Source of the DNA: Terriglobia bacterium
Lineage (GTDB): Bacteria > Acidobacteriota > Terriglobia > JAJPHL01 > JAPKYU01
Direction of reading: 5' to 3'
NCBI GenBank assembly: GCA_965206645.1
Contig: CBDBKE010000002.1
Span: forward strand, 288,001-352,000
DNA: 64,000 bases
The position numbers and the translations under genes were made by a program. Below, in pieces: positions 1,687 through 56,508 of this stretch (the first letter of the stretch is position 1; every line of letters starts with the position of its first letter). The notes beneath the pieces were generated by a model. The model was given only the letters and a program-made list of their open reading frames with translations, was not told the DNA's origin and did not search any database.

Positions 1687-3486
1687 CTATAGCCCTTTTC
1701 TGGCCAACTCCGTCGAACTATCCGGCTTCAACACCGGCTTCAACACCATCAAGGGAATCTCCTGAACCAAGAGCGGCGCACCCACACGCCCCTCAACAAC
1801 CGGCCGTGCGACCAACCGGGCTACCTGCGGCAGCGGGGTGGCCGCAGCATCCGGGCTCCCCATCACCAGGATCACAATCTTTTGCGTCTTGGGAACGTAT
1901 TGCTCTTTCCTGCCCAAGTCAAGTTCAGCCTCTCTGATCGGCGGCTCCTCGGCGCCGGCGGAGGCCTGCACGCCCGCCGGTAGATTTTCGAGGCTGAGGG
2001 CAACGTCGCCGGAAAAGCCTTCCTGATGCTCCACGGTAACCGACAGCTTCCTGGCTTCCCCGGGCGCCACGTTGATGATGTCTTCCTCGACTTTGATTTT
2101 TCCTGCATGAGGGATCTGCGGCCGAATCAGAATCCGATACTTGAAGGACTGATTGCCGAAGCGGGAAATCAGTTCGCGAATGCGAAGGACGTATTCGCCG
2201 TCCCGCTCAAGGGTGTATATCGTTTTTGCCTGTGGGAGCTTCACCCAGTAATTGTTGTCGCCCCCGACCCTTCTCCAGAAGTTGTTGCAGATATCCCGCC
2301 CGCTGGCGTCCACCAGCTCCAGCCGGGGATTGAATTGCGGGAGCGTTGCGTCGGGCGTCTCCAGCTCAAATGCCAAACGCTGCCCGGCCTTGAGCTTCAG
2401 GTTGTAGATGTCGACTTTCCCCGGACGGTCGATCGCCCCTTCCAAAAAAACCGGCTCGAAGGGCTCCGGTGCGCCGTCGGCTTCAGAGGACGCGCTTGGG
2501 GCGGCCCCTTTCTCCGGCTGCGGCATCGGAACGCTCCTTCCATGAAGCTCCTCGATGCGGTTCAGCTCCAGCTTTCGCACAAACGGTTTTCTGAGCAGAT
2601 CAATGAGTGTCTCGTGGAGTTCAGGAAGGTCTGCCGTCTGGCTGGAGGCAGTTGAAGGCAGGGCGGGAGCGATACGGACCGGAGCGATACGGAGAAGATA
2701 GACAATGTCCGGACCGTCAATTCCGGCATAGGTCCCAACACGCAGCAGGTAGCGGCCTCCCTTGCTGAACGTATACGTCAGCCGCGGCTCCTCAGCGAAC
2801 GCCAGCCGCGTCGGCCGCTTCGGGTCGAACCAAGTGCCGCCCGGTTCATACAGCGTCAGCTGTATAACATCGAACTTGCCTGAGTTGGCTACTGTGTTCG
2901 AGGCAGCGCGAAACTCGATTTCTTCTCCCGGGAGTGCGTCAAAGGAATAGTAATCAGCTTCCCCTTTTTTCCAGATCTTGCCGCCCAGCAATGCCGGCGT
3001 CTGGAGCAGCTGCGGGTTCGGCGGATCGTTATGCGGTGTCTGGCTCTCCAACACAACCGAGTCCGCCGTCACCAGGAACGGGTGAGCATTCGACAGCCCT
3101 CGCGGCGAGACCAGCCTCAGAGAGTGGCGCCCCAGCTTGGCCGAGGAACCGATTTCCAGGTCGACCAAGACCCGATGGCCCAATGTCTCTTCTTTTTTCG
3201 CGAGGATTTGTGCATCTGCCTTCAGCCGCAGCAGCGTAATCTGCTCGACCTTCTTGATCCGCCCCTGAATCCCCTCACTGCCGGACCAGACAGCATAAGC
3301 CCCCTCCAGATTGCTTCCCCGGATCTCAATCTCCGAGACAGCCCCACGTGTTGCTCCTAAGGGGTATACCGAGATTATTTCCGGAGTCGAATTGGCCTTG
3401 GGCTTCTCGGCGGGCAAACCTGCGACTGGGGACAATACGAATATGAATGCCGCCATCAAGAGCCACGTCACACTCACCCTCGTCAT
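1687..3486 (-). CDS. PPC (pre-peptidase C-terminal) repeat-containing secreted protein
   Basis: Signal peptide, SVYPLGATRG, EADYYSFDA and VDIYNLKLKAGQRL PPC-like motifs; typical partner of DUF1553 genes. Start uncertain (3486 or 3531). Confidence 0.7.
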   Translation of the reverse strand: MTRVSVTWLLMAAFIFVLSPVAGLPAEKPKANSTPEIISVYPLGATRGAVSEIEIRGSNLEGAYAVWSGSEGIQGRIKKVEQITLLRLKADAQILAKKEETLGHRVLVDLEIGSSAKLGRHSLRLVSPRGLSNAHPFLVTADSVVLESQTPHNDPPNPQLLQTPALLGGKIWKKGEADYYSFDALPGEEIEFRAASNTVANSGKFDVIQLTLYEPGGTWFDPKRPTRLAFAEEPRLTYTFSKGGRYLLRVGTYAGIDGPDIVYLLRIAPVRIAPALPSTASSQTADLPELHETLIDLLRKPFVRKLELNRIEELHGRSVPMPQPEKGAAPSASSEADGAPEPFEPVFLEGAIDRPGKVDIYNLKLKAGQRLAFELETPDATLPQFNPRLELVDASGRDICNNFWRRVGGDNNYWVKLPQAKTIYTLERDGEYVLRIRELISRFGNQSFKYRILIRPQIPHAGKIKVEEDIINVAPGEARKLSVTVEHQEGFSGDVALSLENLPAGVQASAGAEEPPIREAELDLGRKEQYVPKTQKIVILVMGSPDAAATPLPQVARLVARPVVEGRVGAPLLVQEIPLMVLKPVLKPDSSTELARKGL

Positions 3487-3848
3487 GGCGATCCAGTTCT
3501 CCTCAGGGGACGCGCCGGTCTGGACCAGCATCAGTACTCACAGTTGCTAAGGATGTATTGTACTACGATCACTGCGCCGTGGTTACCACGATTATCAAGC
3601 CTTTTCTGTCGTGGCAAGTGTGCGGAACGTCGGTGCACGAAGACGGCTTGGGGGCCCCTAGGAATAAAAGCTTCTTATTGCTAAGATAGCGTAGAGCTGC
3701 CAATAGCATAACCTCTTGTATTAAAACACGTTACCGTTTGGAGGCCGTTCCGCCAAGCGTTTTCATCCATGCCCAGTACTGGAGACCACCATTGTCACGC
3801 TACGGGCCGCCACCGAAGACATAGGGAACTCCGATCTTGTCCCGGGCT

Positions 3849-5321: not shown

Positions 5322-8300
5322 TTACTGTTTGGTGACGGTTTCATCCAGGTTCAGAATCAGGCTCGCCATTGCCGTGTATGCGGCCAGTTCGCTGACGTCC
5401 AGCTTCTCGTTGCGCGGGTGCTCTCCGATGCTGAGCAGCTTGAGCGCTGCTTTCCGGTCAGCCCGGTACTGTTCCAGGTAATGTCGGAAGCTGCTCAGCA
5501 GAATCTCAGCCCTTGGGCGGGATAGCCCGCGCGCGGTAGCCAGGCGGAAGGCGTAGCCGATCCGCTCCTCAGGAGTGCCTCCCCCCTTGGTCAGCATTCG
5601 TTCGGCAAGGACACGGGCCGCCTCCAGGTAGGTGACGTCGTTCATCAGATTGAGCGCTTGAAGCGGCGTATTGGTCCGGTTTTCAAGCACCACGCAGGTC
5701 TCGCGGCCCGACGCGTCGAAAATCATCATTGAGGGAGGCGGGACAGCTCGTTTCCAGAAGGTGTAGAGGCTGCGGCGGTAGAGGTCCTCTCCCTTATCTG
5801 CTTCATATTCGTTCGTTCCCGACAGTTCCTTCCACAAGCCGGCAGGTTGGTAGGGCTTGACCGAAGGTCCGCCAATTTTCTCGACCAGCAGCCCGGCCAT
5901 CGCAAGCGCCTGGTCGCGGACCATTCCTGCCGACAGGCGGAACCGCGGTCCGCGAGCCAGCAGGAGATTCTGGGGGTCCCTCTGCAACCCTTCAGGGGTT
6001 ACCCGGGAGGACTGGCGGTAGGTCGCGCTGCTCACAATCAGCTTCTGCATCGCCTTGACATCCCAACCCGTCCGGACGAATTCCGTGGCGAGCCAGTCGA
6101 GCAGCTCGGGATGAGTGGGCCATTCCCCTTGTAAACCGAAGTTTTCGGCAGTCTTGACCAGCGCGGTGCCAAAGTACATCTGCCAGAAGCGATTCACGAC
6201 GACACGCGCGGTCAGTGGGTTGGACGGGTGCACCAGCCAGCGCGCCAAGCCCAGGCGGTTGTTTTCCCAGCCCTGCGGCAAGGGGGCAAGAACCGCAGGA
6301 ACTCCAGTCGTCACTTTCTCTCCCGGACGGTCGTAAGCGCCCCGGATCAGCACATGCGTCGGGCGCGGTGTCTCGCGCTCCTGCATGACCATGACGGTGG
6401 GGATGCTCTCCCAAAACTTCTGCTTCTGCGCTCGCAGATCTCGCACCTGCGCCCAGGCCTGCCGAATCTCCGCAGGGGCCTGCTCCTCCAGGAAATACAA
6501 CTTGATTTTTTCCGACTGCAGCCGCGATCTCTTCTCGCTCCGAAGAGCCAGGATCTCCGCAATCAAGGAAGAGGTGGCGACCACTGCCGCCTCGTCGGGC
6601 CGCAGGACCACCTTGTAGACGCGCACGTCGTCCACATAGCCGCGGAAGCGGTTCTCCAGGCCGCCGCCTGCGCCGATGCGCAGCAGGTGTCCTGGGAAAT
6701 GGAACCCTTGGCTTAGCTCGTCAAGCAGAACCTCCAATTCCTGAGGTTCACCGTCCACATAGATCCGGACTCCGTCGGCCAGGTGGGAGGCGTCATAGGT
6801 CGCAAGAACGTGGTGCCAGCGGTTCAGTTCTAGCGCCCTCTCGGTTTGCACGCGCAACGCGTCATCCAGCCAACGTGAAACGAGATTCAACTGGACCTTT
6901 CCCTCCTTCAAGTACAGCCCATAACCCAAAGGCTCCGAGACGTCTTCGCCGTTAGCGACTATAGCCCCCTGCGCCGCTGTGGGATAAACCCAGGCCGCAA
7001 GGGTGAACTTGTCGTAGAAGCCGAACCTCGCGATATCGCCGGCGTGGAGGAAATGTTTGCCGTCAAAACTGGCCGCCTGTCCAACCCGGCCGGTGACGAA
7101 TGCTGGCTCTCCTTCCTGTGGGAGGGCACAATCGGGCTTTCCGCCTAGATCGCCGTCCAGGCGGTAGTGCACCACCAGTCCCCGCGCAACGGACCAGTCC
7201 GCCGGTTGTGTCCTGGTAAACTCTTTTTCCCAGCTTCGCTGCGCTTCGGCCATTGCAGTCTCTAGCTTCGCAAACTTCTTTTCGGCGGCCTCCAGCTTCC
7301 TCTCCAGATCCTGCACTCGAGCTTTCTGAGCGTCGGTGGGAGCTTTGATCATGGGCGCCGAATTGCCGTATTTATTCGCCCTTCCCTTTTCCGGGACGTT
7401 GTTGAAGTAGGCGAACAGCCGGTAAAAATCTTTCTGGGTAAAGGGATCGTACTTGTGGTCGTGACACCGGGCGCAGCCCAGGGTCAGACCTAGCCAGACG
7501 GTGGAGGTTGTCTCCAGCCGGTCCACTACATACTCCACCGCATATTCTTCAGGGATGATGCCACCCTCGCCGTTGCCGCGGTGATTCCGATTGAAGCCAG
7601 TGGCGATTCTCTGTTCCAGCGTGGGATTCGGCAGCATGTCACCCGCGATCTGCTCGATGGTGAACTGATCGAAGGGCATGTTGCGATTGAAGGCGTCAAT
7701 GACCCAGTCGCGCCACCGCCACATGCTGCGCTCGGCATCCGTCTGATACCCATTGGTATCCGCATAACGCGCCGCGTCCAGCCATCGTGTTGCCATCCGT
7801 TCGCCGTAGCGCGGAGAATCGAGCAGCCGGTCTACTACCTTCCCGTACGCGTTGGGCGAAGGGTCCTGCAAGAAGCCGTCAATTTCGGCGGGGGTGGGCG
7901 GCAACCCGGTCAGGTCCAGGCTCACCCGGCGAATCAGGGTAGCCTTGTCGGCTTCGGGAGAAGGACGGAAGCCATCCCGCTCCAGTCGTTCCAATACGAA
8001 GAAATCGATCGCAACGCGCGGCCAGCTTCGGTCGCGGACCTCGGGAAGGGCCGGAGCGCGGGGCGGGATGAAAGACCAGTGCTGCGTTTGCCACTTGGCG
8101 CCCTGCTCGATCCAGCGGCGGATCAGTTCGATCTCCGGAGCAGCGAGCGTTCGACCGGAAAACGCGGGAGGCATTTTCACCGCTGGGTCGGAGGAGGAAA
8201 TGCGCCGGTACATTTCACTGCGGGCCGGCTCGCCCGGCACAACGGCAAACTTCTCCCCTAGGTCAGCGAACGCACCCGCTTCGGTGTCGAGCCGTAACTT

Positions 8301-26034: not shown

Positions 26035-26661
26035 GTGGAAATCCAGGGTGGCGGGTCCGGCAAGAACGCCAAGCAGAACCGCAACACGGTTACTGTCCGC
26101 CTGAAACGAGGAGTGAAGCTCGATTGGGACCGGCTGGAACGCCACTTCTACCTCAGCTCCAGTTGCGGGGTCTGCGGGAAAGCCTCGATCGAGGCGCTAC
26201 AGGCCACCGGCTGCCCCACTCTGCCCTCGGCCAAGCCTCTCATTGATTCCTCGGTGATCCACCGCCTGCCCCAGACTCTGCGGAGTTCCCAGGCCCTTTT
26301 TGACCGCACCGGCGGCCTGCACGCCGCCGCTCTGTTTAACTCCACGGGAAAACTGCTGAGCATGCGAGAGGATGTGGGCCGGCACAATGCCCTGGATAAA
26401 TTGATCGGCGCTGAATTCCTGAAGAATCGCTTACCTCTTTCCAACAGGCTGGCCGATAGGCTGCTGCTGTTGAGTGGACGCACCAGCTTTGAGCTGGTGC
26501 AGAAGGCGTTGATGGCGGGGATTCCCGTGCTCGCCGCTGTAGGCGCGCCTTCCAGCCTTGCCGTCGAGCTTGCCTTAAGATTCCAGATGACGCTGGTGGG
26601 ATTCGTGCGCAACGACCGGTTCAATATCTATTCCGGGGGCTGGCGCATCCAGGGAGTCTAA
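26035..26661 (+). pseudogene. fdhD: FdhD sulfurtransferase, N-terminally truncated
   Basis: SSCGVCG, TGGLHAAAL, EDVGRHNALDKLIG, SGRTSFELVQK present; usual N-terminal EEP/TMRTPG region absent, in-frame stop 21 nt upstream of the GTG. Confidence 0.75.
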
Positions 26662-48512: not shown

Positions 48513-48589
48513 TTCGGGTGAAGAGGAAGCTCGAAATGGAAATTCCGGATGAGTCCTATTCGCAGTTGCAGGACTTGCGCTTGAGGAGG

Positions 48590-51500
48590 ATGTCGGTGAC
48601 TCTGAAACCCCTGAGCACCTCTCTGATCATCGCGCTCATACTGAGCGCGGCGGCGCGAGCAGAGGTGAGCTTCAATCGCGACGTCCGCCCAATCATGTCG
48701 GACACCTGCTTCCGTTGTCACGGTCCGGACGAGAATGCCCGCATGGCGGGTCTGCGGCTTGACATCCGGAAAGAAGCTCTGCGGTCCACCAAGTCCGGCC
48801 GCATTCCCATTGTTCCCGGCAAGCCGGAAGCGAGCGAGATTGTCAAACGCATCTTTTCGGATGACCCCAGGGTCATGATGCCACCGGCTTTCGCCGACAA
48901 GGAACTGACCGAGAGCCAGAAGGAAACCATTCGGCAGTGGGTGGCCGAAGGGGCGAAGTACGAGGGGCATTGGAGCTTCCAGCCCGTCCGGCGGCCGGCA
49001 GTGCCGGAGGTTGCGGAAAGAGGAGCCGCCATTCGCAATCCGATCGATTCGTTCATTCAGAATCGTCTGGCGAAGGAGGGATTGCAGCCGTCCCCCGAGG
49101 CGGATCGGCGGACGCTGATTCGGCGGGTCGCGCTAGACCTCACAGGTCTGCCGCCCACGCCTGCCGAGGTGGAAGCGTTTCTCAAGGACACATCGCCCAA
49201 TGCCTACGAAAAGCTGGTCGAGAAGCTGCTGGCTTCTCCGCGTTATGCGGAAAAGCAGGCGATGCATTGGCTCGACGCGGTCCGCTATGCAGACACGCGC
49301 GGGTTCCATGGGGATAACGACCAGCCGGCGTGGCCCTATCGAGATTACGTGTTGCGGGCGTTTCTCGACAACAAGCCGTTCGATCAATTCACACGGGAGC
49401 AGATTGCGGGAGATCTCTTGCCGGATGCCACCGTGCAGCAGCGAGTTGCCTCAGCATATAACCGCATCCTTCGCACCTCGCGGGAGGGCGGCCTCCAGGA
49501 AAAGGAGTACCTGGCCAAGTACGCCTCCGACCGCGTGCGGACAACGTCCAGCGTCTGGCTCGGTCTGACAATGGGCTGCGCGGAGTGCCACGACCACAAA
49601 TTCGATCCGGTGAAGACGAAGGACTTCTATTCGATGAAAGCCTTCTTCGCCGACATCAAAGAGAAGGGTCTTCTACCCGGTTCCGGCCCGGAAGCCTGGA
49701 TTGCAACCCTGTCGTTGCCAACCCCAAAGCAGCGTACGCGATTAGCCGAGCTGAATGAAGCGGTCAAGGCGGCCGAGCAGGCGCTCCAGGAAAAGACGGC
49801 GAGCCTGGCACCACAGCAGGCGGAATGGGAACAGCAACTGTTGGCTGACTTTGAAGCAGGCCGGCTAGAGTGGCGCTATCAGCGACCCTTCTCGGCTAGC
49901 TCCAGCAATGGCGCGCACCTCACCATCTACGACGACGAGCTCGTCGAACGCACCTTCCATGTCGACGCGAAGGCGACGCTGGTCACACAACGAGAGCCCG
50001 GAAATGGTCTGGTGGTGGTCAGCGGACCGAATCCGGACAACGAGACTTACACGATCAGCTTCAAGCCAGGGCTCGGTACATGGACGGCGCTCGGGGTGCA
50101 GGCAATCCAGGATGAAAGTCTGCCTGGCAAGCGGCTGGGGCGAGGCGCGGATCGCTTAGTCCTGACCGAGGTCGAGGCCGCATTGTCGGCCAATGGGAAG
50201 ACGCCAGAGCGGAAACTCTCGTTCGTTCTGGCGACCACCCGCGGATCTAGAGGACCCCTGGAGCAGCCGCCAATGGCCGCCATTGACGGCGACCCGGCCA
50301 GCGGTTGGGCTGGCGATTCGGGAAGTCCAGTCGACGAGGGCAGGAGCCCGTTTCTCGCGCTCCGTTTCGCTGAGCCTGTCAAGACGGACGCAACCTCGGT
50401 GATCACGGTCCGTCTCCGGCACGATTTCTCGCTTCGCCGTGCAACGATCGGCCGGCTGCGCCTTGCGCTCTCCTCCGGCCGATACTCCTGGCCGCTGGAT
50501 GATTTAGATACCGCAGAGGATGACCCAGAAGTTAGCGAGCGGCGCTCCAGTAAAGGTGGCGCAGGTGATGGTATGCCCAGCGAGGTGCTGGAGGCCCTCA
50601 AAGTTGCCCCCGAGGCGAGGTGCGACAACCATCTCAAGGCCCTCAGGGAGCATTTCCAATGGTCCTCTCCCGGGCTGCAGCCGCTTTTTGTCCAGCTGGA
50701 ACGCCTGAAAGCTGCCCGGGCTTTGCTGGAAACTGAGATTCCCACGGTGATGGTTACCGAAGCGACCAAACCACGGGAAACCCGCGTTCTCCCACGAGCG
50801 AACTGGATGGATGAGTCGGGCGAGATTGTGCAACCGTTGATTCCCGGCTTCCTCGGCCAAATGGAAACCAACGGCCGCCGAGCGAATCGTCTGGATCTGG
50901 CAAACTGGATTGGCTCCCGTAAGAACCCAATGACGGCGCGGGCGTTCGTCAATCGCCTATGGCGGCAGTTCTTCGGCATGGGGTTGTCCAAGGTGCTCGA
51001 CGATCTGGGCTCGCAGGGCGAGTGGCCAACACACCTTGAGCTGCTCGACTGGCTCGCCGCCGAGTTCATGGGGCCGAGTTGGAGGGCAGACGGCACACAC
51101 CCCTGGGATGTGAAGCACGTTATCCGGACGATTGTTACGAGCCACACCTATCGTCAGTCCTCCATGAGCAGCCCCCAATTCGACGAGCGAGACCCAGGCA
51201 ACCGGCTTCTGGCGCGCCAGAGCCGCTTCCGGGTAGATGCGGAAGTCGTCCGCGACGTCGCGCTGGCTGTGTCCGGTTTGTTGGTCGAAAAGTTCGGCGG
51301 CCCAAGCGTCCGACCGTATCAACCGGAAGGCTACTTAACGGCGATGAATTTCCCCATGCGCGCATACTCGGCAAGCCATGGCGAAAACCTGTACCGTCGA
51401 GGCGTCTATACTCATTGGCAGCGGACGTTCTTGCATCCCAGCTTGTTGACCTTTGATGCGCCTTCGCGTGAGGAGTGCACGGTGAGCCGGATGAGTTCCA

Positions 51501-51850
51501 ACACGCCGTTGCAGGCATTGATCCTCCTGAATGATCCCGTCTTCGTCGAAGCCGCGCGGGTGTTTGCGCAGAACATCCTGAAGAAAGGAGGTCCCACGCT
51601 CGATGCGCGCATCGGCTGGGCCTTCCTACAAGCCCTCAGCCGGAAGACGACTCCTGCCGAGCGAAAAATCCTCGCCGACCTACACAAGAAGAGCCTGGCG
51701 GAGTTTACTGCGCATCCGCAGAAGGCGCGAGAATTCGTTCGTGTGGGAGAATCGCCACTGGCGACGGATGTAAGACCAACCGACCTGGCGGCGATGACAA
51801 CCGTGGCGCGGGCGATCCTGAACCTCCATGAGACCATTACGAGGAACTAG
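48590..51850 (+). CDS. Planctomycete cytochrome c + DUF1549 + DUF1553 protein
   Basis: FNRDVRPIMSDTCFRCHG, CAECHDHKFDP, LLDWLA, NTPLQAL; the track start at 48518 lies inside the IS, so real start is 48590 or 48596 after GAGGAGG. Confidence 0.92.
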   Translation: MSVTLKPLSTSLIIALILSAAARAEVSFNRDVRPIMSDTCFRCHGPDENARMAGLRLDIRKEALRSTKSGRIPIVPGKPEASEIVKRIFSDDPRVMMPPAFADKELTESQKETIRQWVAEGAKYEGHWSFQPVRRPAVPEVAERGAAIRNPIDSFIQNRLAKEGLQPSPEADRRTLIRRVALDLTGLPPTPAEVEAFLKDTSPNAYEKLVEKLLASPRYAEKQAMHWLDAVRYADTRGFHGDNDQPAWPYRDYVLRAFLDNKPFDQFTREQIAGDLLPDATVQQRVASAYNRILRTSREGGLQEKEYLAKYASDRVRTTSSVWLGLTMGCAECHDHKFDPVKTKDFYSMKAFFADIKEKGLLPGSGPEAWIATLSLPTPKQRTRLAELNEAVKAAEQALQEKTASLAPQQAEWEQQLLADFEAGRLEWRYQRPFSASSSNGAHLTIYDDELVERTFHVDAKATLVTQREPGNGLVVVSGPNPDNETYTISFKPGLGTWTALGVQAIQDESLPGKRLGRGADRLVLTEVEAALSANGKTPERKLSFVLATTRGSRGPLEQPPMAAIDGDPASGWAGDSGSPVDEGRSPFLALRFAEPVKTDATSVITVRLRHDFSLRRATIGRLRLALSSGRYSWPLDDLDTAEDDPEVSERRSSKGGAGDGMPSEVLEALKVAPEARCDNHLKALREHFQWSSPGLQPLFVQLERLKAARALLETEIPTVMVTEATKPRETRVLPRANWMDESGEIVQPLIPGFLGQMETNGRRANRLDLANWIGSRKNPMTARAFVNRLWRQFFGMGLSKVLDDLGSQGEWPTHLELLDWLAAEFMGPSWRADGTHPWDVKHVIRTIVTSHTYRQSSMSSPQFDERDPGNRLLARQSRFRVDAEVVRDVALAVSGLLVEKFGGPSVRPYQPEGYLTAMNFPMRAYSASHGENLYRRGVYTHWQRTFLHPSLLTFDAPSREECTVSRMSSNTPLQALILLNDPVFVEAARVFAQNILKKGGPTLDARIGWAFLQALSRKTTPAERKILADLHKKSLAEFTAHPQKAREFVRVGESPLATDVRPTDLAAMTTVARAILNLHETITRN

Positions 51851-51860
51851 GGAGACTCCG

Positions 51861-53297
51861 ATGGACCCAGAATCATTGGCCTTGCAGATTCACCGGCGGA
51901 CGTTCCTGCGCTACGGCATTTCAGGACTGGGCCTGGTGGCGTTGAATTCATTACTCGATGCGAGGCTCTTGGCTTCGGAAGCGGCCCTGGGAACCCAGGG
52001 GTCGCAAGGAGCTGTGGACCCGCTACATCATCCGGCGAAAGCCAAGCGCGTTATCTTTCTTTATCAGGCAGGCGGACCATCGCACCTTGAGACCTTCGAT
52101 TACAAGCCAAAGCTCGCCGAAATGAACAGTAAACCAATGCCCGAGTCCTTCACCAAGGGCCAACAGCTGGCCCAGCTGCAGGGCAAGCCACTGGTTTGCT
52201 TTGGACCGCAGCACGAGTTCAGCAGGTTTGGCAAATCGGGGCTCGAGATCTGCGGGTTGTTTCCACACATCGGCAGCGTCGCAGATGATGTTTGCATTAT
52301 TCGCTCGATGTGGACGGAACAGATTAACCACGATCCGGCCCATACCTTGATGAACACTGGAGCGATCGTCGCGGGCCGGCCGAGCATGGGATCATGGTTG
52401 TTGTATGGGCTCGGGTCGGAAGCCAGCGATTTGCCGGGTTTCGTGGTGCTCGCCTCAAAGGGCAAGGGTGGGCAGATGCAGCCGATTGCGGCACGGCAAT
52501 GGGCCTCCGGATTCCTGCCCGGGAAATTTCAGGGTGTAAAGTTCAACTCCATCGGGGACCCCGTACTATACATCCAGAACCCGCAGGGCTTGAATGCCAG
52601 CATCCAGCACGCTTCCGTGCAGGCGATTCAGGCCATCAACAAGATCCAGCACGAAGCGCGGCGGGATCCGGAGGTTCTTACGAGGATTTCGCAATATGAG
52701 ATGGCGTTCAAGATGCAGACCAGCGTGCCGGACCTCATGGACATGAGCAAGGAGCCACCCCATATCCTGGAAATGTATGGTGCCAAGCCAGGGGATGGCT
52801 CTTTTGCGTCCAATTGCATGCTGGCGCGGCGCCTGGCAGAGCGCGGCGTGAGGTTCATCCAGCTGTATCACCGGGACTGGGACCACCATGGCGCGGTCAA
52901 AAACAACGTTGCCATCAAGGCGCAGGAAACGGACCGGGCTACTGCCGCGCTGATCAAAGACTTGAAGCAGCGAGGCATGTTTGAGGATACGTTGGTTGTT
53001 TGGGGAGGCGAATTCGGTCGGACACCCATGTCGCAGGGGGACAACGGGCGCGACCATCACATCAAGGGCTTCTCGTTCATGCTGGCGGGTGGTGGGATTA
53101 AGGGCGGCATCACGTACGGGGCCACCGACGAGCTGGGCTATGCGGCGGTGGAAAAACCCGTCAGCGTCCACGACTTTCATGCCACTATGCTGCACCTACT
53201 GGGGATCGATCACCTGCGCATGACGGTCAAGTTCCAGGGCTTGGACGCACGGCTGACGGGGGTTTCTGGTGAGGTCCTGAAAGAAATTCTGGCTTAG
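51861..53297 (+). CDS. DUF1501 domain protein (Tat signal)
   Basis: RRTFL; [38 protein letters not shown]. Confidence 0.92.
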   Translation: MDPESLALQIHRRTFLRYGISGLGLVALNSLLDARLLASEAALGTQGSQGAVDPLHHPAKAKRVIFLYQAGGPSHLETFDYKPKLAEMNSKPMPESFTKGQQLAQLQGKPLVCFGPQHEFSRFGKSGLEICGLFPHIGSVADDVCIIRSMWTEQINHDPAHTLMNTGAIVAGRPSMGSWLLYGLGSEASDLPGFVVLASKGKGGQMQPIAARQWASGFLPGKFQGVKFNSIGDPVLYIQNPQGLNASIQHASVQAIQAINKIQHEARRDPEVLTRISQYEMAFKMQTSVPDLMDMSKEPPHILEMYGAKPGDGSFASNCMLARRLAERGVRFIQLYHRDWDHHGAVKNNVAIKAQETDRATAALIKDLKQRGMFEDTLVVWGGEFGRTPMSQGDNGRDHHIKGFSFMLAGGGIKGGITYGATDELGYAAVEKPVSVHDFHATMLHLLGIDHLRMTVKFQGLDARLTGVSGEVLKEILA

Positions 53298-53384
53298 TCG
53301 GGCCAGCCATATACCTCAATCTCAAAGGGCAAAGCCAATACAGCTTTACAATTCCATTGGCCAATCCCATTGGACAGAAGGTCC

Positions 53385-53414
53385 TTGACAGCGGTGGAAG
53401 CCCCAAGGGAGAAT
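53385..53414 (+). promoter_or_regulatory. Putative promoter TTGACA-N18-GAGAAT for the leader/sulfite reductase unit
   Basis: Consensus -35; -10 ends 10 nt before the leader GTG. Confidence 0.45.
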
Positions 53415-53424
53415 CATTATCACG

Positions 53425-53520
53425 GTGCAGTTCGGTCGGAGAGAGTTAAGGCTTTGTTGCCCTACGCCGGGATGTTGTTGCCCGTGCGGGCGGCTCTCCG
53501 GCGGACGGTTCGTCTCGTAG
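53425..53520 (+). CDS. Putative Cys-rich leader peptide MQFGRRELRLCCPTPGCCCPCGRLSGGRFVS
   Basis: 6 Cys codons within 11 codons, upstream of a terminator and a sulfur-assimilation gene. Confidence 0.7.
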   Translation: MQFGRRELRLCCPTPGCCCPCGRLSGGRFVS

Positions 53521-53547
53521 CTTGTAGCCTAAGTTATCATCCAGCTG

Positions 53548-53586
53548 ACCCGCCGTCGAGAGATCGAGCCTCTCGGGCGGGTTTTT
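53548..53586 (+). terminator. Intrinsic terminator (attenuator) in the sulfite reductase leader
   Basis: ACCCGCC/GGCGGGT plus CGAGAG/CTCTCG stem followed by a T run, 46 nt before the ATG. Confidence 0.75.
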
Positions 53587-53632
53587 CGTTCCGCGCGATT
53601 GATCTGAGCGGAAGCAGACGGAGTACGGAATT

Positions 53633-55894
53633 ATGAAAGTCTCCAGCGCACTCTGGAAAGAACGGCTTGTCGGGAAGCTGCCGGATAGCTTGGCCCGCGA
53701 AGTGGACATCTTCGAAACGGAGATAGATTTGCGAAGACAGGGCAAAGTGGAAGAAAAACTCTTTGCGGAAACTCGGCTTCGCAGAGGTGTCTACGGACAA
53801 CGCTATGACAACGGCCAGCGGCACGATGGGCAGAAAGTCCAGGATCTCGCCTATCCTTCCAGACAACTGACCAAGGGGCCAAATGCGGTGTGGGATGCTC
53901 CCGGCATGCAGCGTATCAAGGTCCCTTACGGAGGACTCAATGCGGAGCAACTGGAGACCCTAGCGGATTTGACCGAGGAATATTCCGACGGCATTGCGCA
54001 CGTCACGACCCGGCAGGACTTCCAACTGCACTATGTGCAGATTGACGATACGCCCGCTTTGATGCGGCGGCTGGCCGCGGTCAAGATCACCACCCGCGAG
54101 GCTTGCGGCAACTCGGTGCGCAATGTGACCGCTTGCCCCTACGCCGGTGTTTGCCCGGACGAGGCTTTCGACGTCACCCCGTATGCCCGCGCCCTTTCCC
54201 GATTCTTGCTGGGACATCCCGACGCGCAGAACTTCGGCAGGAAGTTCAAGCCGGCCTTCAGCGGCTGCCGGGACCATGGCTGTGGCCTCACCAACATGCA
54301 CGATCTGGGTTTGATCGCAGTCAAACGGAACGGTGGCGGAAAAGAAGAACGAGGTTTTGAAATGTACGTCGGCGGTGGATTGGGGGCCGTTCCCTATCAG
54401 GCGAAGCTGTTTGACTCCTTCCTGCGGCCGGAGGAGCTTCTGCCGACAGCTCAGGCAATTGCCAGGGTCTTCGCGCGGCAGGGGGAGAAGAAAAACCGCA
54501 ATCGGGCCCGTATCAAATTCCTGGTCCATGACCTGGGGATTGAGAAATTTAAGGAGCTGGTGCTTGAGGAGCGCAAGAATCTTCCTCCAGATGTCCGATG
54601 GAACGATTCCCTGGAGGGCGCCGAGCAGGAGTCGGAAGGAGCTCTCCGACCCGGAGGGAAGCTGCCGGCCGGAGGCTCGGAAGACTTCCGGCGCTGGGTG
54701 GAAACCAATACTCGCCGGCAGAAGCAGGAGGGATATGTCGTGGCCACGGTGGCGCTCCCCCTGGGAGATCTCACCTCGCTACAACTTCGTGCTTTGGCCG
54801 ACATCGTCCGCCGGTTCACAAAAGAAACTATCCGCACCACTGTGGAACAAAATTTCGTTCTCCGCTGGATCAGTCAAAGCGATTTGCCCGAACTCTATCG
54901 AGCATTAAAGGAGGCCGGCATGGCAGAGCCGGGCGCGGGCACGCTCGTGGACATTGTTGCCTGCCCAGGCACAGATACCTGCAAACTCGGGATTTCCTCC
55001 TCGCGCGGGCTGGCCGCCGAGTTGCGGAAACGACTGGCCGAGAAATGCTTTCAACTGGATGAGGCCGTTCGAAGCCTGCACATCAAAGTCAGCGGCTGCT
55101 TTAACAGCTGCGGGCAGCACCACGTCGCCGACCTGGGCTTTTACGGCGTCAGCCGCAAGCTGGCTGGCCATGCCGTACCGCACTTTCAGGTTGTTCTCGG
55201 CGGTGAGTGGACCCACAATGCGGGCTCCTATGGCCTGGCCATTGTAGCGATTCCCTCCAGAAGAATTCCGGAAGTGGTCACCCGCATTACCGAACGCTAT
55301 GTCTCCGGCCGAAAGAACGGAGAAGGCTTTCAGGACTTCATTAAGCGAATCGGCAAGGTGGAATTGAAGAAAATGCTGGAAGATCTTGCCCAGCCACCCG
55401 ACCCCGCGACCGATCGCTCCTTTTTCCAGGACTGGGGTGACCCCCGGGAGTACAGCCTGGGCGACCTCGGCGTCGGCGAATGCGCCGGGGAGGTGGTGAG
55501 CTCGGTCGAGTTCGGCCTAGCGGCCGCGGAACGCGAAGTCTTCGAGGCGCAGGTGGCGTTGGAAAATGGCGAAACAGAGAAGGCCAGAGAGACGGCGTAT
55601 CAATCCATGCTCCATGCTGCCAAGGCGCTCGTCCGAATCGAGCACCTGGATATTTCCGACGACTCGGATCAGATTGTCCAGCAATTCCGCACCCGTTTCT
55701 ACGATACGCAGAAGTTCTTCGATCCTTTTGCCGGCGGTAAGTTCGCCCATTACCTGTTTGCCGCTCACCGAAAGGCCGAGGACCCATACACACCGGAGGC
55801 CACCCACCACTTGATCGAGGAGGCGCAACTGTTCATCGAGGCCTCGCACAGTTGCTACAGCCGCATGGCCACCCCTGCAGGCGCCAGGGCGTAG
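53633..55894 (+). CDS. Siroheme-[4Fe-4S] sulfite/nitrite reductase with C-terminal HEPN-like extension
   Basis: GVYGQR, HVTTRQDFQ, CGNSVRN, CPGTDTC, SGCFNSCGQH; YQSMLHAAKAL. Confidence 0.9.
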   Translation: MKVSSALWKERLVGKLPDSLAREVDIFETEIDLRRQGKVEEKLFAETRLRRGVYGQRYDNGQRHDGQKVQDLAYPSRQLTKGPNAVWDAPGMQRIKVPYGGLNAEQLETLADLTEEYSDGIAHVTTRQDFQLHYVQIDDTPALMRRLAAVKITTREACGNSVRNVTACPYAGVCPDEAFDVTPYARALSRFLLGHPDAQNFGRKFKPAFSGCRDHGCGLTNMHDLGLIAVKRNGGGKEERGFEMYVGGGLGAVPYQAKLFDSFLRPEELLPTAQAIARVFARQGEKKNRNRARIKFLVHDLGIEKFKELVLEERKNLPPDVRWNDSLEGAEQESEGALRPGGKLPAGGSEDFRRWVETNTRRQKQEGYVVATVALPLGDLTSLQLRALADIVRRFTKETIRTTVEQNFVLRWISQSDLPELYRALKEAGMAEPGAGTLVDIVACPGTDTCKLGISSSRGLAAELRKRLAEKCFQLDEAVRSLHIKVSGCFNSCGQHHVADLGFYGVSRKLAGHAVPHFQVVLGGEWTHNAGSYGLAIVAIPSRRIPEVVTRITERYVSGRKNGEGFQDFIKRIGKVELKKMLEDLAQPPDPATDRSFFQDWGDPREYSLGDLGVGECAGEVVSSVEFGLAAAEREVFEAQVALENGETEKARETAYQSMLHAAKALVRIEHLDISDDSDQIVQQFRTRFYDTQKFFDPFAGGKFAHYLFAAHRKAEDPYTPEATHHLIEEAQLFIEASHSCYSRMATPAGARA

Positions 55895-55932: not shown

Positions 55933-56508
55933 ATGGAACTCCAGCACGTCAACGTAAAGCTCTACGTGGAGAATCCAAAGGGAACCGACCTAGAGGTGTT
56001 GATTCCAGTCTTTCACAACTGGATCCAGGATCAGGTGTGTGAGGAATTGTTGATCGATGTGGCCGATTACCGGCACGTTCATCAAGGTCCGGGAGTGGTC
56101 CTGATCGGCCATGAAGCCAATTACAGTCTGGACAATGCAGATAACCGGCTGGGCGTTCGCTACAACCGCAAGGCTCCCTTAGCAGGCGGCAATCAAGACC
56201 GCTTCGTGCAAGCCACCCGGGCGGCGCTGACCGCCTACAGACGTCTGGATTCCGATCCGCGGATTCAGGGAAAATTTCTCCTGAACGGTCAGGAGCTGGA
56301 GCTATTTGTGAACGACCGACTGCTGGCTCCGAACCTTGAGAAAACCTACCAGGCTGCGAAGCCGGAACTGGAAGGCTTTTTCGGGAAACTCTTTGCGGGA
56401 AGTGGTTACTCGGTCGCGCACAATGGCGACCCTCGGAATCTGTTCTCGGTCGAAGTCCAGGCTTCCAGGCCCTTCACAGCAAGCGAATTGCTCAAGAACC
56501 TATCCTGA
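55933..56508 (+). CDS. Hypothetical protein, probably co-transcribed with the reductase
   Basis: GAGG SD, 191-aa ORF (IPVFHNWIQ, IDVADYRHV). Confidence 0.75.
   Translation: MELQHVNVKLYVENPKGTDLEVLIPVFHNWIQDQVCEELLIDVADYRHVHQGPGVVLIGHEANYSLDNADNRLGVRYNRKAPLAGGNQDRFVQATRAALTAYRRLDSDPRIQGKFLLNGQELELFVNDRLLAPNLEKTYQAAKPELEGFFGKLFAGSGYSVAHNGDPRNLFSVEVQASRPFTASELLKNLS

Follow-up and report, generated by a model that had tools for sequence, protein, structure and literature searches.

Judging from its sequence, the leader upstream of a NirA-family reductase gene (sir) in a Terriglobia bacterium is very likely a ribosome-mediated transcription attenuator. It would respond to charged tRNA-Cys and govern an operon of two genes, sir and one encoding 191 amino acids. 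The leader lies in a stretch of 64,000 nucleotides, hereafter the window, and was compared with the closest 80 of at least 581 matching sir loci, with flanks of up to 4 kb each. A short ORF, a run of Cys codons, an intrinsic terminator and a mutually exclusive antiterminator are all present in the leader. We infer that the ORF is translated, that ribosomes stall on it, and that termination takes place and responds to cysteine. The strength of the case comes from the relatives and not from the window alone.

Layout of the leader and its operon

An initial annotation of this region had described a promoter-like site, a 31-codon Cys-rich ORF, a terminator and an antiterminator pairing ahead of sir, and every one of these elements was found in its place. 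The attenuation architecture it had proposed is also conserved in relatives and behaves as the model predicts, with a near-leaderless ORF, an antiterminator after the Cys codons and a terminator. The elements of the window are as follows.

53385..53414, forward strand: sigma-70-type promoter-like site, TTGACA (53385-53390), an 18-nt spacer and GAGAAT (53409-53414), matching at 10 of 12 positions
53425..53520, forward strand: leader short ORF of 31 codons, MQFGRRELRLCCPTPGCCCPCGRLSGGRFVS, from GTG (53425) to TAG (53518-53520)
53440..53446, forward strand: possible region 1, AGAGAGT, which could pair with GCTCTC at about 53493-53498 and is weak in the window
53455..53487, forward strand: predicted regulatory Cys codons, TGT TGC (53455-53460), TGT TGT TGC (53473-53481) and TGC (53485-53487)
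53493..53509, forward strand: antiterminator 5' strand (region 2), with core CTCTCCGGCGG at 53494-53504
53548..53586, forward strand: predicted intrinsic terminator, stem-loop 53548-53581 and T-run 53582-53586, -23.1 kcal/mol
53548-53562, forward strand: terminator 5' arm (region 3), followed by the loop (53563-53569)
53570-53581, forward strand: terminator 3' arm (region 4), followed by the T-run
53620..53623, forward strand: Shine-Dalgarno-like GGAG, clear of the terminator stem and 9 nt ahead of the sir ATG
53633..55894, forward strand: sir, encoding a NirA-family siroheme/[4Fe-4S] nitrite/sulfite reductase of 753 aa with a C-terminal extension of about 165 aa
55933..56508, forward strand: conserved partner gene downstream of sir, 191 aa, of no known family

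Under the proposed mechanism, transcription would start a few bases ahead of the short ORF and a ribosome would load at or near the 5' end. With abundant Cys-tRNA, translation would proceed as far as the TAG stop, where the ribosome covers 53493-53509, so that the terminator arms pair and transcription ends at the T-run (53582-53586). A shortage of Cys-tRNA would instead make the ribosome stall on the Cys codons at 53455-53487, leaving 53494-53504 exposed. The exposed segment would pair with 53550-53562 once the latter is transcribed, no terminator would form, and transcription would continue into sir.

The sir product contains the domains PF01077 (3.3e-57) and PF03460 (4.4e-39). Its relatives of 751 aa share 75-80% identity with it and are named sulfite reductase (ferredoxin) by one source. 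Sulfite reductase is linked to cysteine synthesis. On the basis of the Cys leader, a rhodanese leader of the same type described below, and a nearest solved structure that is NirA of M. tuberculosis (1zj8), it is reasonable to hold that the reductase serves sulfur rather than nitrogen assimilation. The partner gene follows sir in 73 of the 80 loci (six of the seven misses are truncated contigs) and probably belongs to the same operon. Its protein has no Pfam or NCBIfam family, and Atlas lists hypothetical proteins only.

Terminator, antiterminator and the effect of ribosome position

The detailed leader statistics on geometry, terminator and folding rest on 49 leaders. Across these, 89.3% of cells in the terminator stem were paired, compared with 29-52% when the partner was slid by 1-3 columns, and RNAalifold run on their alignment returned the terminator alone. 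The initial annotation had pointed to orthologs as the place to look for conserved Cys codons and compensatory stem changes, and both are there: runs of TGY (Cys) codons precede sir in 52 of the 80 loci, and 7 of 11 terminator pairs have changed on both sides, with a covariation score reached by none of 500 shuffles. Comparing the fold of the whole leader with shuffles in the window was uninformative (z = -0.55).

Region 2 begins 11 nt past the CCC run, and its 3' end is 11 nt short of the last base of the stop codon. In the window, its core CTCTCCGGCGG pairs with CCGCCGTCGAGAG (53550-53562) in a duplex of -19.7 kcal/mol; for region 2 as a whole, the duplex takes in 53549-53562. In all subfamilies the terminator 5' arm finds a partner in the 3' part of the ORF, and a change in one sequence is accompanied by a change in the other, as in CCGACGTGTGG with CCCACCGTCGG, GTTCTGGCGCGTGG with CCACCGCCAGAGC, and CTGGGGATGGGG with CCCACCGCCAG. 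Covariation of the antiterminator in one fixed MAFFT register was weak (4 of 10 pairs changed on both sides, equaled by 232 of 500 shuffles) because the pairing register differs between subfamilies, and we therefore relied on duplex tests that need no alignment. Cognate duplexes had a median of -17.1 kcal/mol, and for 31 of 49 terminator arms the leader's own segment ranked in the best quarter when set against the segments of other classes. No more than 5% of a leader's own shuffles reached its duplex in 21 of 49 leaders, where about 2.5 would be expected by chance. The window alone is marginal in this respect, as shuffling the 45-nt G-rich stretch concerned gives an equally strong duplex with the arm in 6% of cases. 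Pairing between regions 1 and 2 is clear in relatives such as L034, L044, L015 and L047, and weak in the window, where it was read from the minimum free energy fold of the stalled state.

Folding was used to ask how the position of the ribosome affects these pairings. In equilibrium partition-function folds of full leaders with ribosome footprints masked, the terminator formed with a median probability of about 0.95 in every state and no switch was seen. As these folds could not discriminate between states, we turned to transcripts ended before the terminator 3' arm, with the ribosome placed either at the first Cys codon of the run or at the stop. The 5' arm was then paired with a median probability of 0.75 when the ribosome was stalled and 0.46 when it was at the stop (Wilcoxon p = 5e-12). 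Of the 49 leaders, 33 showed a difference of 0.2 or more, none showed one of that size in the opposite direction, and 8 stayed below 0.05. Relative to the ribosome-free state, 14 of 49 leaders gained 0.2 or more in 5' arm pairing on stalling. The window itself responded modestly, with the 5' arm paired at 0.66-0.81 when stalled compared with 0.53 at the stop. The control for this analysis was weak, since the 5' arm was still paired with a probability of 0.60 after the upstream sequence had been shuffled. The response to ribosome position was seen in the truncated, kinetic-style folds and not at equilibrium. Given that the terminator wins equilibrium folds in every ribosome state, the switch would have to be kinetic.

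The absence of a terminator switch in equilibrium folds would also suit a leader in which the poly-Cys ORF senses Cys-tRNA but the output is translational, or acts via Rho or mRNA stability as in mycobacteria, the hairpin being remodeled rather than serving as a terminator. Indeed, the only experimentally studied poly-Cys leaderless ORFs free a sequestered ribosome-binding site, as far as the available text describes (10.1101/834739). We nevertheless regard this reading as unlikely for the present leader. The hairpin is always followed by a T-run, and its distance to the sir ATG varies widely, from 17 to 143 nt. What is conserved is instead the spacing from the ORF stop to the first T of the T-run (median 64 nt, interquartile range 62-67, in 49 leaders), not that from the hairpin to the ribosome-binding site, and in the window the GGAG at 53620-53623 stands outside the stem.

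The short ORF and its Cys codons

In the window, the short ORF of 31 codons includes 6 for Cys, among them the CCC run. Among relatives we counted stretches of three or more TGY codons in a row in the 350 nt ahead of sir, and used the remainder of the 80 loci on both strands (1.39 Mb) as background. The 52 loci with upstream runs correspond to 1.90 runs per kb, compared with 0.042 per kb elsewhere in the loci, which is an enrichment of about 45-fold. A covariance model of the leader, R1, found a match immediately ahead of sir in the window and in 57 of the 80 closest loci; 9 of the 57 matched loci were outside its training set. The same operon occurs without the leader in the other 23.

Other TGY runs in the window, at 26462 (+), 57242 (-) and 47654 (-), are all in short stop-to-stop frames, that at 26462 lying under an ORF of 208 aa, and none has a terminator-like site within 130 nt. 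Separately, 53200-53800 was searched against Rfam with an E cutoff of 10, and the one match, to an lncRNA model (E = 2.8), was irrelevant and fell within the coding part of sir. With no relevant Rfam match in this interval, we set aside riboswitch and T-box readings.

Promoter hexamers also lie directly 5' of the short ORF in relatives, with at least 9 of 12 matches in 36 of 52 leaders. The start codon, which may be ATG, GTG or TTG, follows shortly after the promoter-like site: it is no more than 15 nt past the -10 hexamer in 34 of the 36 leaders with good promoters, 6-7 nt past it in 11 of these, and 6-14 nt past the promoter hexamer in most loci. Such distances suggest that the ORF is leaderless or nearly so, and the hexamers immediately upstream of the start leave no room for a Shine-Dalgarno site. 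In the window, GTG begins 10 nt past the end of the -10 hexamer, and the predicted 5' UTR is therefore about 3-4 nt. The closest relative, L001 (97% identical), has an ATG 6 nt after the -10 hexamer, which is a truly leaderless spacing. Because this position reads ACG in the window and its GTG lies 10 nt past the -10 hexamer, initiation is less certain here than in relatives.

Conservation of the leader is strongest at the nucleotide level, at TGTTGTTG and in the terminator arms, as might be expected of an untranslated RNA element controlling the terminator, whether a riboswitch or a protein-binding site that recognizes UGU repeats. We consider such an element very unlikely. Runs of Cys codons are always in an open frame, just past a promoter and at a fixed distance from the terminator. 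No Rfam family reaches E = 1 in the leader, and apart from the mutually exclusive helices, RNAalifold found the terminator but no conserved structure resembling a ligand pocket.

Runs of 2-6 Cys codons are the sole feature common to all leader peptides. Among the 49 leaders, the run comprises 3 codons in 29, 4 in 11, 5 in 3, 6 in 3 and 2 in 3, and it ends a median of 11 codons before the ORF stop. Codon choice within leaders is distinctive: Cys codons there are 190 TGT to 77 TGC (71% TGT), whereas sir in these genomes uses 32 TGT and 501 TGC (6% TGT; Fisher p = 1e-84). In the nearest relative after L001 (L020), the run has decayed to C-Y-C-Y and the ORF extends into the terminator. Two other leaders (L060 and L063) have an ORF that stops early, with the antiterminator nucleotides still kept past the stop, which implies that selection acts on the RNA.

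These patterns make it highly improbable that the ORF encodes a functional Cys-rich micropeptide, for example one that is metal-binding or redox-active, followed by a hairpin that is an ordinary partial terminator after a small gene. Conservation of an open ORF in about 50 species would agree with a functional product, as would the synonymous nature of both substitutions that separate the window from L001 inside the ORF. However, peptides of different subfamilies share little outside of a Cys run that itself varies in length, and their conserved C-terminal residues coincide with the antiterminator strand. The downstream nucleotides outlast the early stops, and the preference for rare TGT is the opposite of selection for efficient expression. 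A chance ORF with chance complementarity beside an ordinary terminator, which the weak statistics of the window alone would allow, has next to no probability and is contradicted by the comparative data, namely the enrichment of Cys runs, the recurrence of the leader at 57 of 80 loci, covariation and codon bias.

Related systems and wider occurrence

Classical attenuators, such as those of trp, his, leu, thr, pheA and ilv in Enterobacteria and of trp in Corynebacterium and Streptomyces, share with the present leader a short ORF containing a run of end-product codons, as well as mutually exclusive antiterminator and terminator hairpins with a T-run. Many relatives add the 1:2 pairing, which gives the full 1:2, 2:3 and 3:4 logic of those systems. 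Unlike them, the present leader would sense cysteine, precedes a sulfite-reductase-like gene, belongs to the phylum Acidobacteriota, and has an ORF that appears leaderless or nearly so, without a Shine-Dalgarno site. It bears no sequence relation to any Rfam leader family.

The initial annotation had cited poly-Cys attenuators of mycobacteria as known, and they are, although in the available text they act on translation and not via a terminator: polycysteine leaderless ORFs unmask a ribosome-binding site, with no terminator route (Canestrari et al. 2020, 10.1101/834739). Cys leader peptides were predicted earlier in Mycobacterium, Propionibacterium acnes and Bifidobacterium longum, with no terminators found according to the accessible part of that study (Seliverstov et al. 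2005, PMC1262725). As far as these sources describe them, the mycobacterial ORFs, which are leaderless where the present one appears leaderless or nearly so, share with it consecutive Cys codons, cysteine or sulfur genes downstream and, by the mechanism proposed here, ribosome pausing as the signal. The present leader differs in having a covarying intrinsic terminator and an antiterminator, and in coming from another phylum, with no homology implied. The mycobacterial ORFs are an analogue, not the same device.

The sensing-and-output logic is the same in the uORFC-8-2 motif upstream of cysS in Rhodobacterales, where an intrinsic terminator and tandem Cys codons are predicted to form a ribosome-mediated attenuator (Brewer et al. 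2021, PMC8632094). As presented in the available text, it regulates cysteinyl-tRNA synthetase rather than sulfur assimilation, is found in alpha-proteobacteria, has two Cys codons, mostly UGC, at positions 14-15 where the present leader has 3-6, mostly UGU, and is not described as leaderless. A transcriptional Cys-codon attenuator therefore has a precedent (PMC8632094), so the present case is not categorically new. The initial annotation had noted no description of such an attenuator in Acidobacteria, and the literature searched contained none for that phylum or for sulfite reductase. Lopatovskaya, Seliverstov and Lyubetsky (2010, Mol Biol 44:128) reportedly surveyed attenuators in several phyla, which may bear on novelty.

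A second leader of the same type was found in one relative (L041) before a tandem-rhodanese gene, with an R1 score of 50.3 bits, which hints that several operons are under this control, a further likeness to the mycobacterial case. In the flanks, which contain 45 other poly-Cys runs, it was the one that stood up among those examined individually. In a different locus (L038), an ORF with Trp, Phe and Tyr codons, followed by a terminator, precedes a DAHP-synthase-like gene.

Acidobacteria are abundant in soil and hard to culture, and very little is known of their gene regulation. It is conceivable, though somewhat doubtful, that transcription attenuators with leaderless leader peptides serve Terriglobia as a general means of sensing amino acids, with a Cys 'ribulon' and sister leaders. 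If so, several sulfur operons would be under the joint control of a ribulon that has real terminators, sir with its partner and the rhodanese gene being those identified to date, and sister leaders would sense other amino acids, the ORF with aromatic codons being one candidate. Such a system would give this major soil phylum its first described regulatory logic for sulfur assimilation. It would also be the first family of classical (terminator-type) attenuators to rest on leaderless translation. Additional regulon members can be sought with the covariance model R1.

For the operon itself, the leader suggests what a vaguely named NirA-family enzyme and its partner gene are for: both would be cysteine-related, and the enzyme by implication probably reduces sulfite rather than nitrite. 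The extreme preference for wobble-decoded TGT in the sensor bears on the tuning of regulatory codons. With the proposed attenuator, sulfur assimilation gains a concrete mechanism of cis-regulation in no fewer than 57 species-level genomes. The attenuator would also be a natural example in which leaderless translation and classical terminator/antiterminator attenuation, themes studied separately, are joined.

Anatomy of the leader and the genes behind it

The initial annotation proposed an attenuator upstream of sir, a NirA-family nitrite/sulfite reductase gene (53633..55894, +). We read window positions 53000-54000 and listed the ORFs, and every proposed element was found in place.

Elements of the sir leader in the window
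53385-53390 and 53409-53414, +, promoter-like site: TTGACA, 18-nt spacer, GAGAAT; 10/12 matches
53425 to 53518-53520, +, leader ORF, GTG to TAG, 31 codons, encoding MQFGRRELRLCCPTPGCCCPCGRLSGGRFVS
53455-53460, 53473-53481 and 53485-53487, +, six Cys codons
53494-53504, antiterminator segment CTCTCCGGCGG, complementary to CCGCCGTCGAGAG at 53550-53562 in the terminator 5' arm; best duplex -19.7 kcal/mol
53548-53581, +, GC-rich terminator hairpin, then TTTTT at 53582-53586; -23.1 kcal/mol
53620-53623, +, GGAG upstream of the 753-aa gene's ATG at 53633

The GTG lies 10 bases downstream of the -10 hexamer GAGAAT. The statistics of the window by itself are not convincing: the whole leader folded no better than its shuffles (z = -0.55), and shuffling the G-rich 45-nt segment gave equally good binding to the terminator arm in 6% of cases. 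An Rfam scan of the leader matched no family, even at E = 10. The region upstream (48518-53297, +) holds a 1110-aa ORF and a 489-aa DUF1501 protein (PF07394, E = 1.1e-156), both unrelated to the attenuator.

A domain search of the 753-aa Sir found NIR_SIR 4Fe-4S and ferredoxin-like half domains, and the nearest NCBIfam model, 'NirA family protein', matched below its cut-off. The closest solved structure is M. tuberculosis NirA (1zj8, E = 2.3e-50), an enzyme reported to act as a sulfite reductase. Many 751-aa relatives with 75-80% identity occur in Terriglobia, under the name sulfite reductase (ferredoxin) in one source. The C-terminal extension of ~165 aa (55400-55891, +) is absent from solved NirA/SiR structures, and its sole match, to HEPN, fell below threshold (E = 6.4e-4; 20.3 bits, cut-off 22). 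In one source, relatives carry a label describing a fusion to a UPF0332-family protein. A 191-aa gene (55933-56508, +) follows sir in 73 of the best 80 of 581 loci, with six of the seven misses on truncated contigs, and the two therefore probably form one operon. Its product, probably functionally partnered with the reductase, matched no Pfam or NCBIfam family, and its Atlas entries were exclusively hypothetical proteins, mostly from Acidobacteriota.

Conservation of the leader among relatives

Relatives' loci were fetched with an alignment of 20 proteins, taking one genome per species. This matched 585 stretches; after confirmation 581 remained, of which we used the best 80. Most of these best 80 of 581 loci had a short ORF bearing a Cys run within 450 nt upstream of sir (e.g., MRYCVHPACVAQACCCCCTTPSACVG; VSHRIKIGACICCCCNSAPLCGGIAR; MGKGLHSGDLMCCCTSVPACGG; MAMCCCCACRVSSGDGVQSS). 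The conservation of Cys codons upstream of orthologs, named in the initial annotation as a check, was borne out: runs of at least three consecutive TGT or TGC codons occurred in 52 of the 80, amounting to 52 runs in 27,434 nt (1.90 per kb) versus 59 in 1,392,214 nt (0.042 per kb) across both strands of the rest of the loci. Leader peptides of different subfamilies shared little except this run.

The terminator was similarly widespread, with a strong hairpin and T-run downstream of the ORF in 50 of 54 leaders (53 loci plus the window). Among 49 aligned leaders, the ORF stop preceded the first T of the T-run by a median of 64 nt (interquartile range 62-67), and the T-run lay 17 to 143 nt from the sir ATG. 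The helix was paired in 89.3% of alignment cells, compared to 29-52% when the partner was slid by 1-3 columns, and RNAalifold independently recovered it. Compensatory stem changes, also anticipated by the initial annotation, were evident in that 7 of 11 pairs changed on both sides, and the covariation score was reached in 0 of 500 shuffles.

In every subfamily, a segment of the ORF pairs with the terminator 5' arm. This antiterminator segment starts 7-16 nt past the final Cys codon of the run; in most leaders, 0-14 nt separate its 3' end from the last base of the stop codon. Both strands co-change between subfamilies (CCGACGTGTGG/CCCACCGTCGG; GTTCTGGCGCGTGG/CCACCGCCAGAGC; CTGGGGATGGGG/CCCACCGCCAG; CCGGTGTGTGGGG/CCCACCTCGG; CTCTCCGGCGG/CCGCCGTCGAGAG in the window). 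The peptides' C-terminal residues (...ACGG, ...SGDG) look conserved because the antiterminator strand encodes them, and two loci with an early ORF stop (L060 and L063) retain the antiterminator nucleotides downstream of it. Counting in a single register gave a weak signal, since the pairing register differs between subfamilies: 79.9% of cells were paired and 4 of 10 pairs were two-sided, which 232 of 500 shuffles matched. Alignment-free tests on the 49 leaders were clearer. The cognate duplex had a median of -17.1 kcal/mol, 31 of 49 arms placed their own segment within the top quarter when ranked against segments of other arm classes, and at most 5% of a leader's own shuffles reached its duplex in 21 of 49 cases.

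A covariance model (R1) built from 49 leaders and the terminator structure placed the leader before sir in 57 of the best 80 of 581 loci, plus the window. Nine matched loci were outside the training set (L064, L065, L019, L076, L041, L055, L069, L020, and L010). We mapped the leader onto a FastTree phylogeny of Sir with 73 rows, excluding eight loci with translated lengths below 600 aa. It was present in 52 rows and absent from 21, requiring at least four gains or losses; 0 of 500 label shuffles required as few. Absences comprised a branch with records titled Planctomycetota, Myxococcales, SAR324, Acidimicrobiia, and Lambdaproteobacteria; a second Acidobacteriota group (L042, L043, L045, L053, and L080); and a Versatilivoraceae group (L016, L018, L021, L022, L032, and L036). 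The Versatilivoraceae loci instead have a TATAGAAT promoter, with a conserved CTGACTATAGAATAG promoter-like box ~100 nt upstream of sir, and a ~85-nt untranslated leader in place of the Cys leader. The locus nearest to the window after L001 (L020) kept the terminator, with its Cys run decayed to C-Y-C-Y. A record titled Anaerolineaceae (L073:234-376, +) has its own Cys-rich ORF, MKTVAMTSACVACMCMCCLTTQRALNA, starting 19 nt downstream of a perfect TTGACA-16-TATAAT site, and a terminator 202 nt upstream of sir. This leader did not match R1 and may be an independent invention or reflect a mis-binned contig.

Ribosome position, translation signals, and codon choice

Equilibrium folds of the complete leader showed no switch, with a terminator probability of ~0.95 without a ribosome, with one stalled on Cys, or with one at the stop. 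Classical attenuators, with antiterminators less stable than the terminators, are likewise not known to switch at equilibrium. Any switch must therefore be kinetic. Accordingly, we folded transcripts ending just before the terminator 3' arm, the moment of decision, and measured the pairing probability of the 5' arm.

Median pairing probability of the terminator 5' arm
Ribosome stalled on first or second Cys of run: 0.75
Ribosome stalled on last Cys of run: 0.66
No ribosome: 0.65
Ribosome at stop codon: 0.46
Control, upstream sequence shuffled: 0.60

Of the 49 leaders, 33 paired the arm more when stalled than with the ribosome at the stop, by 0.2 or more, and none showed the reverse by that margin (Wilcoxon p = 5e-12). 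The difference was below 0.05 in 8 of 49. The folding response anticipated by the initial annotation appeared in truncated transcripts but not at equilibrium. In 14 of 49 leaders, ribosome-free pairing was at least 0.2 below the stalled state; there, the antiterminator strand pairs with an upstream ORF segment, 'region 1', which completes the 1:2 (upstream), 2:3 (antiterminator), 3:4 (terminator) design. The window responded in the right direction with modest size (0.71 free, 0.66-0.81 stalled, 0.53 at the stop).

Promoter-like hexamers directly upstream of the leader ORF scored at least 9 of 12 in 36 of 52 cases. The first in-frame start codon was at most 15 nt past the -10 hexamer in 34 of these 36, and in 11 it was 6-7 nt past, such that the first transcribed base would be the A of ATG. 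With no space left for a Shine-Dalgarno site, the ORFs would be leaderless or nearly so. The window's start is less certain because the ATG of the 97%-identical L001 is ACG there, making the following GTG the start.

Leader Cys codons were 71% TGT (190 TGT and 77 TGC; 48 loci plus the window), compared to 6% (32 TGT and 501 TGC) in sir of the same genomes (Fisher p = 1e-84). The window had 3 TGT and 3 TGC in the leader versus 1 and 11 in sir. This preference for a rare codon read by wobble is consistent with selection for a sensitive response to Cys-tRNA supply, and selection against GC-rich pairs in this segment could account for it as well.

Related leaders and precedents

L041, which has a sir leader, carries a second on the opposite strand (8044-8193, -), with a 28-codon poly-Cys ORF MMVCRQRVADSCCCTCCRTFLWCGQARV followed by a segment resembling an antiterminator and by a terminator of matching type. 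It matched R1 (50.3 bits, E = 1e-10) and precedes a 298-aa tandem-rhodanese (sulfurtransferase-like) gene (7150-8046, -). Use of the device thus extends beyond sir, and it points to sulfur metabolism. Separately, L038:2486-2628 (+) matched R1 weakly (21.5 bits, E = 0.0027). Its short ORF MRTRWAISFSSTCTWSGYAPTG begins 9 nt past a TATAGT hexamer and contains 2 Trp, 1 Phe, and 1 Tyr; a terminator follows, and then a 351-aa gene (2647-3702, +), judged by eye to be a putative DAHP synthase. This may be an aromatic-amino-acid attenuator of the same leaderless build.

In published work, polycysteine leaderless ORFs of M. smegmatis were shown to relieve a sequestered ribosome-binding site, with Canestrari et al. 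stating that transcriptional versus translational action at other loci is undetermined (10.1101/834739). Cys leader peptides were predicted in Mycobacterium, P. acnes, and B. longum, where terminators were not found (Seliverstov et al. 2005, PMC1262725). Brewer et al. 2021 called uORFC-8-2, upstream of cysS in Rhodobacterales, a ribosome-mediated attenuator, and it features tandem Cys codons and an intrinsic terminator (PMC8632094). Passages of PMC13236596 and PMC4833913 added nothing on the sir leader. Among the papers that our literature searches covered, none described a Cys attenuator in Acidobacteria or before a sulfite reductase.

Taken with the leader's anatomy, conservation, and modeled folds, the mechanism put forward initially is the best-supported reading: the sir leader would be a classical ribosome-mediated transcription attenuator sensing Cys-tRNA on a leaderless or near-leaderless ORF. 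From these lines of evidence we infer translation of the ORF, stalling, termination, and a response to cysteine. Because close functional analogues are already published, the leader is not categorically new. It is instead a new family, widely conserved in Terriglobia, within a textbook kind of regulator.
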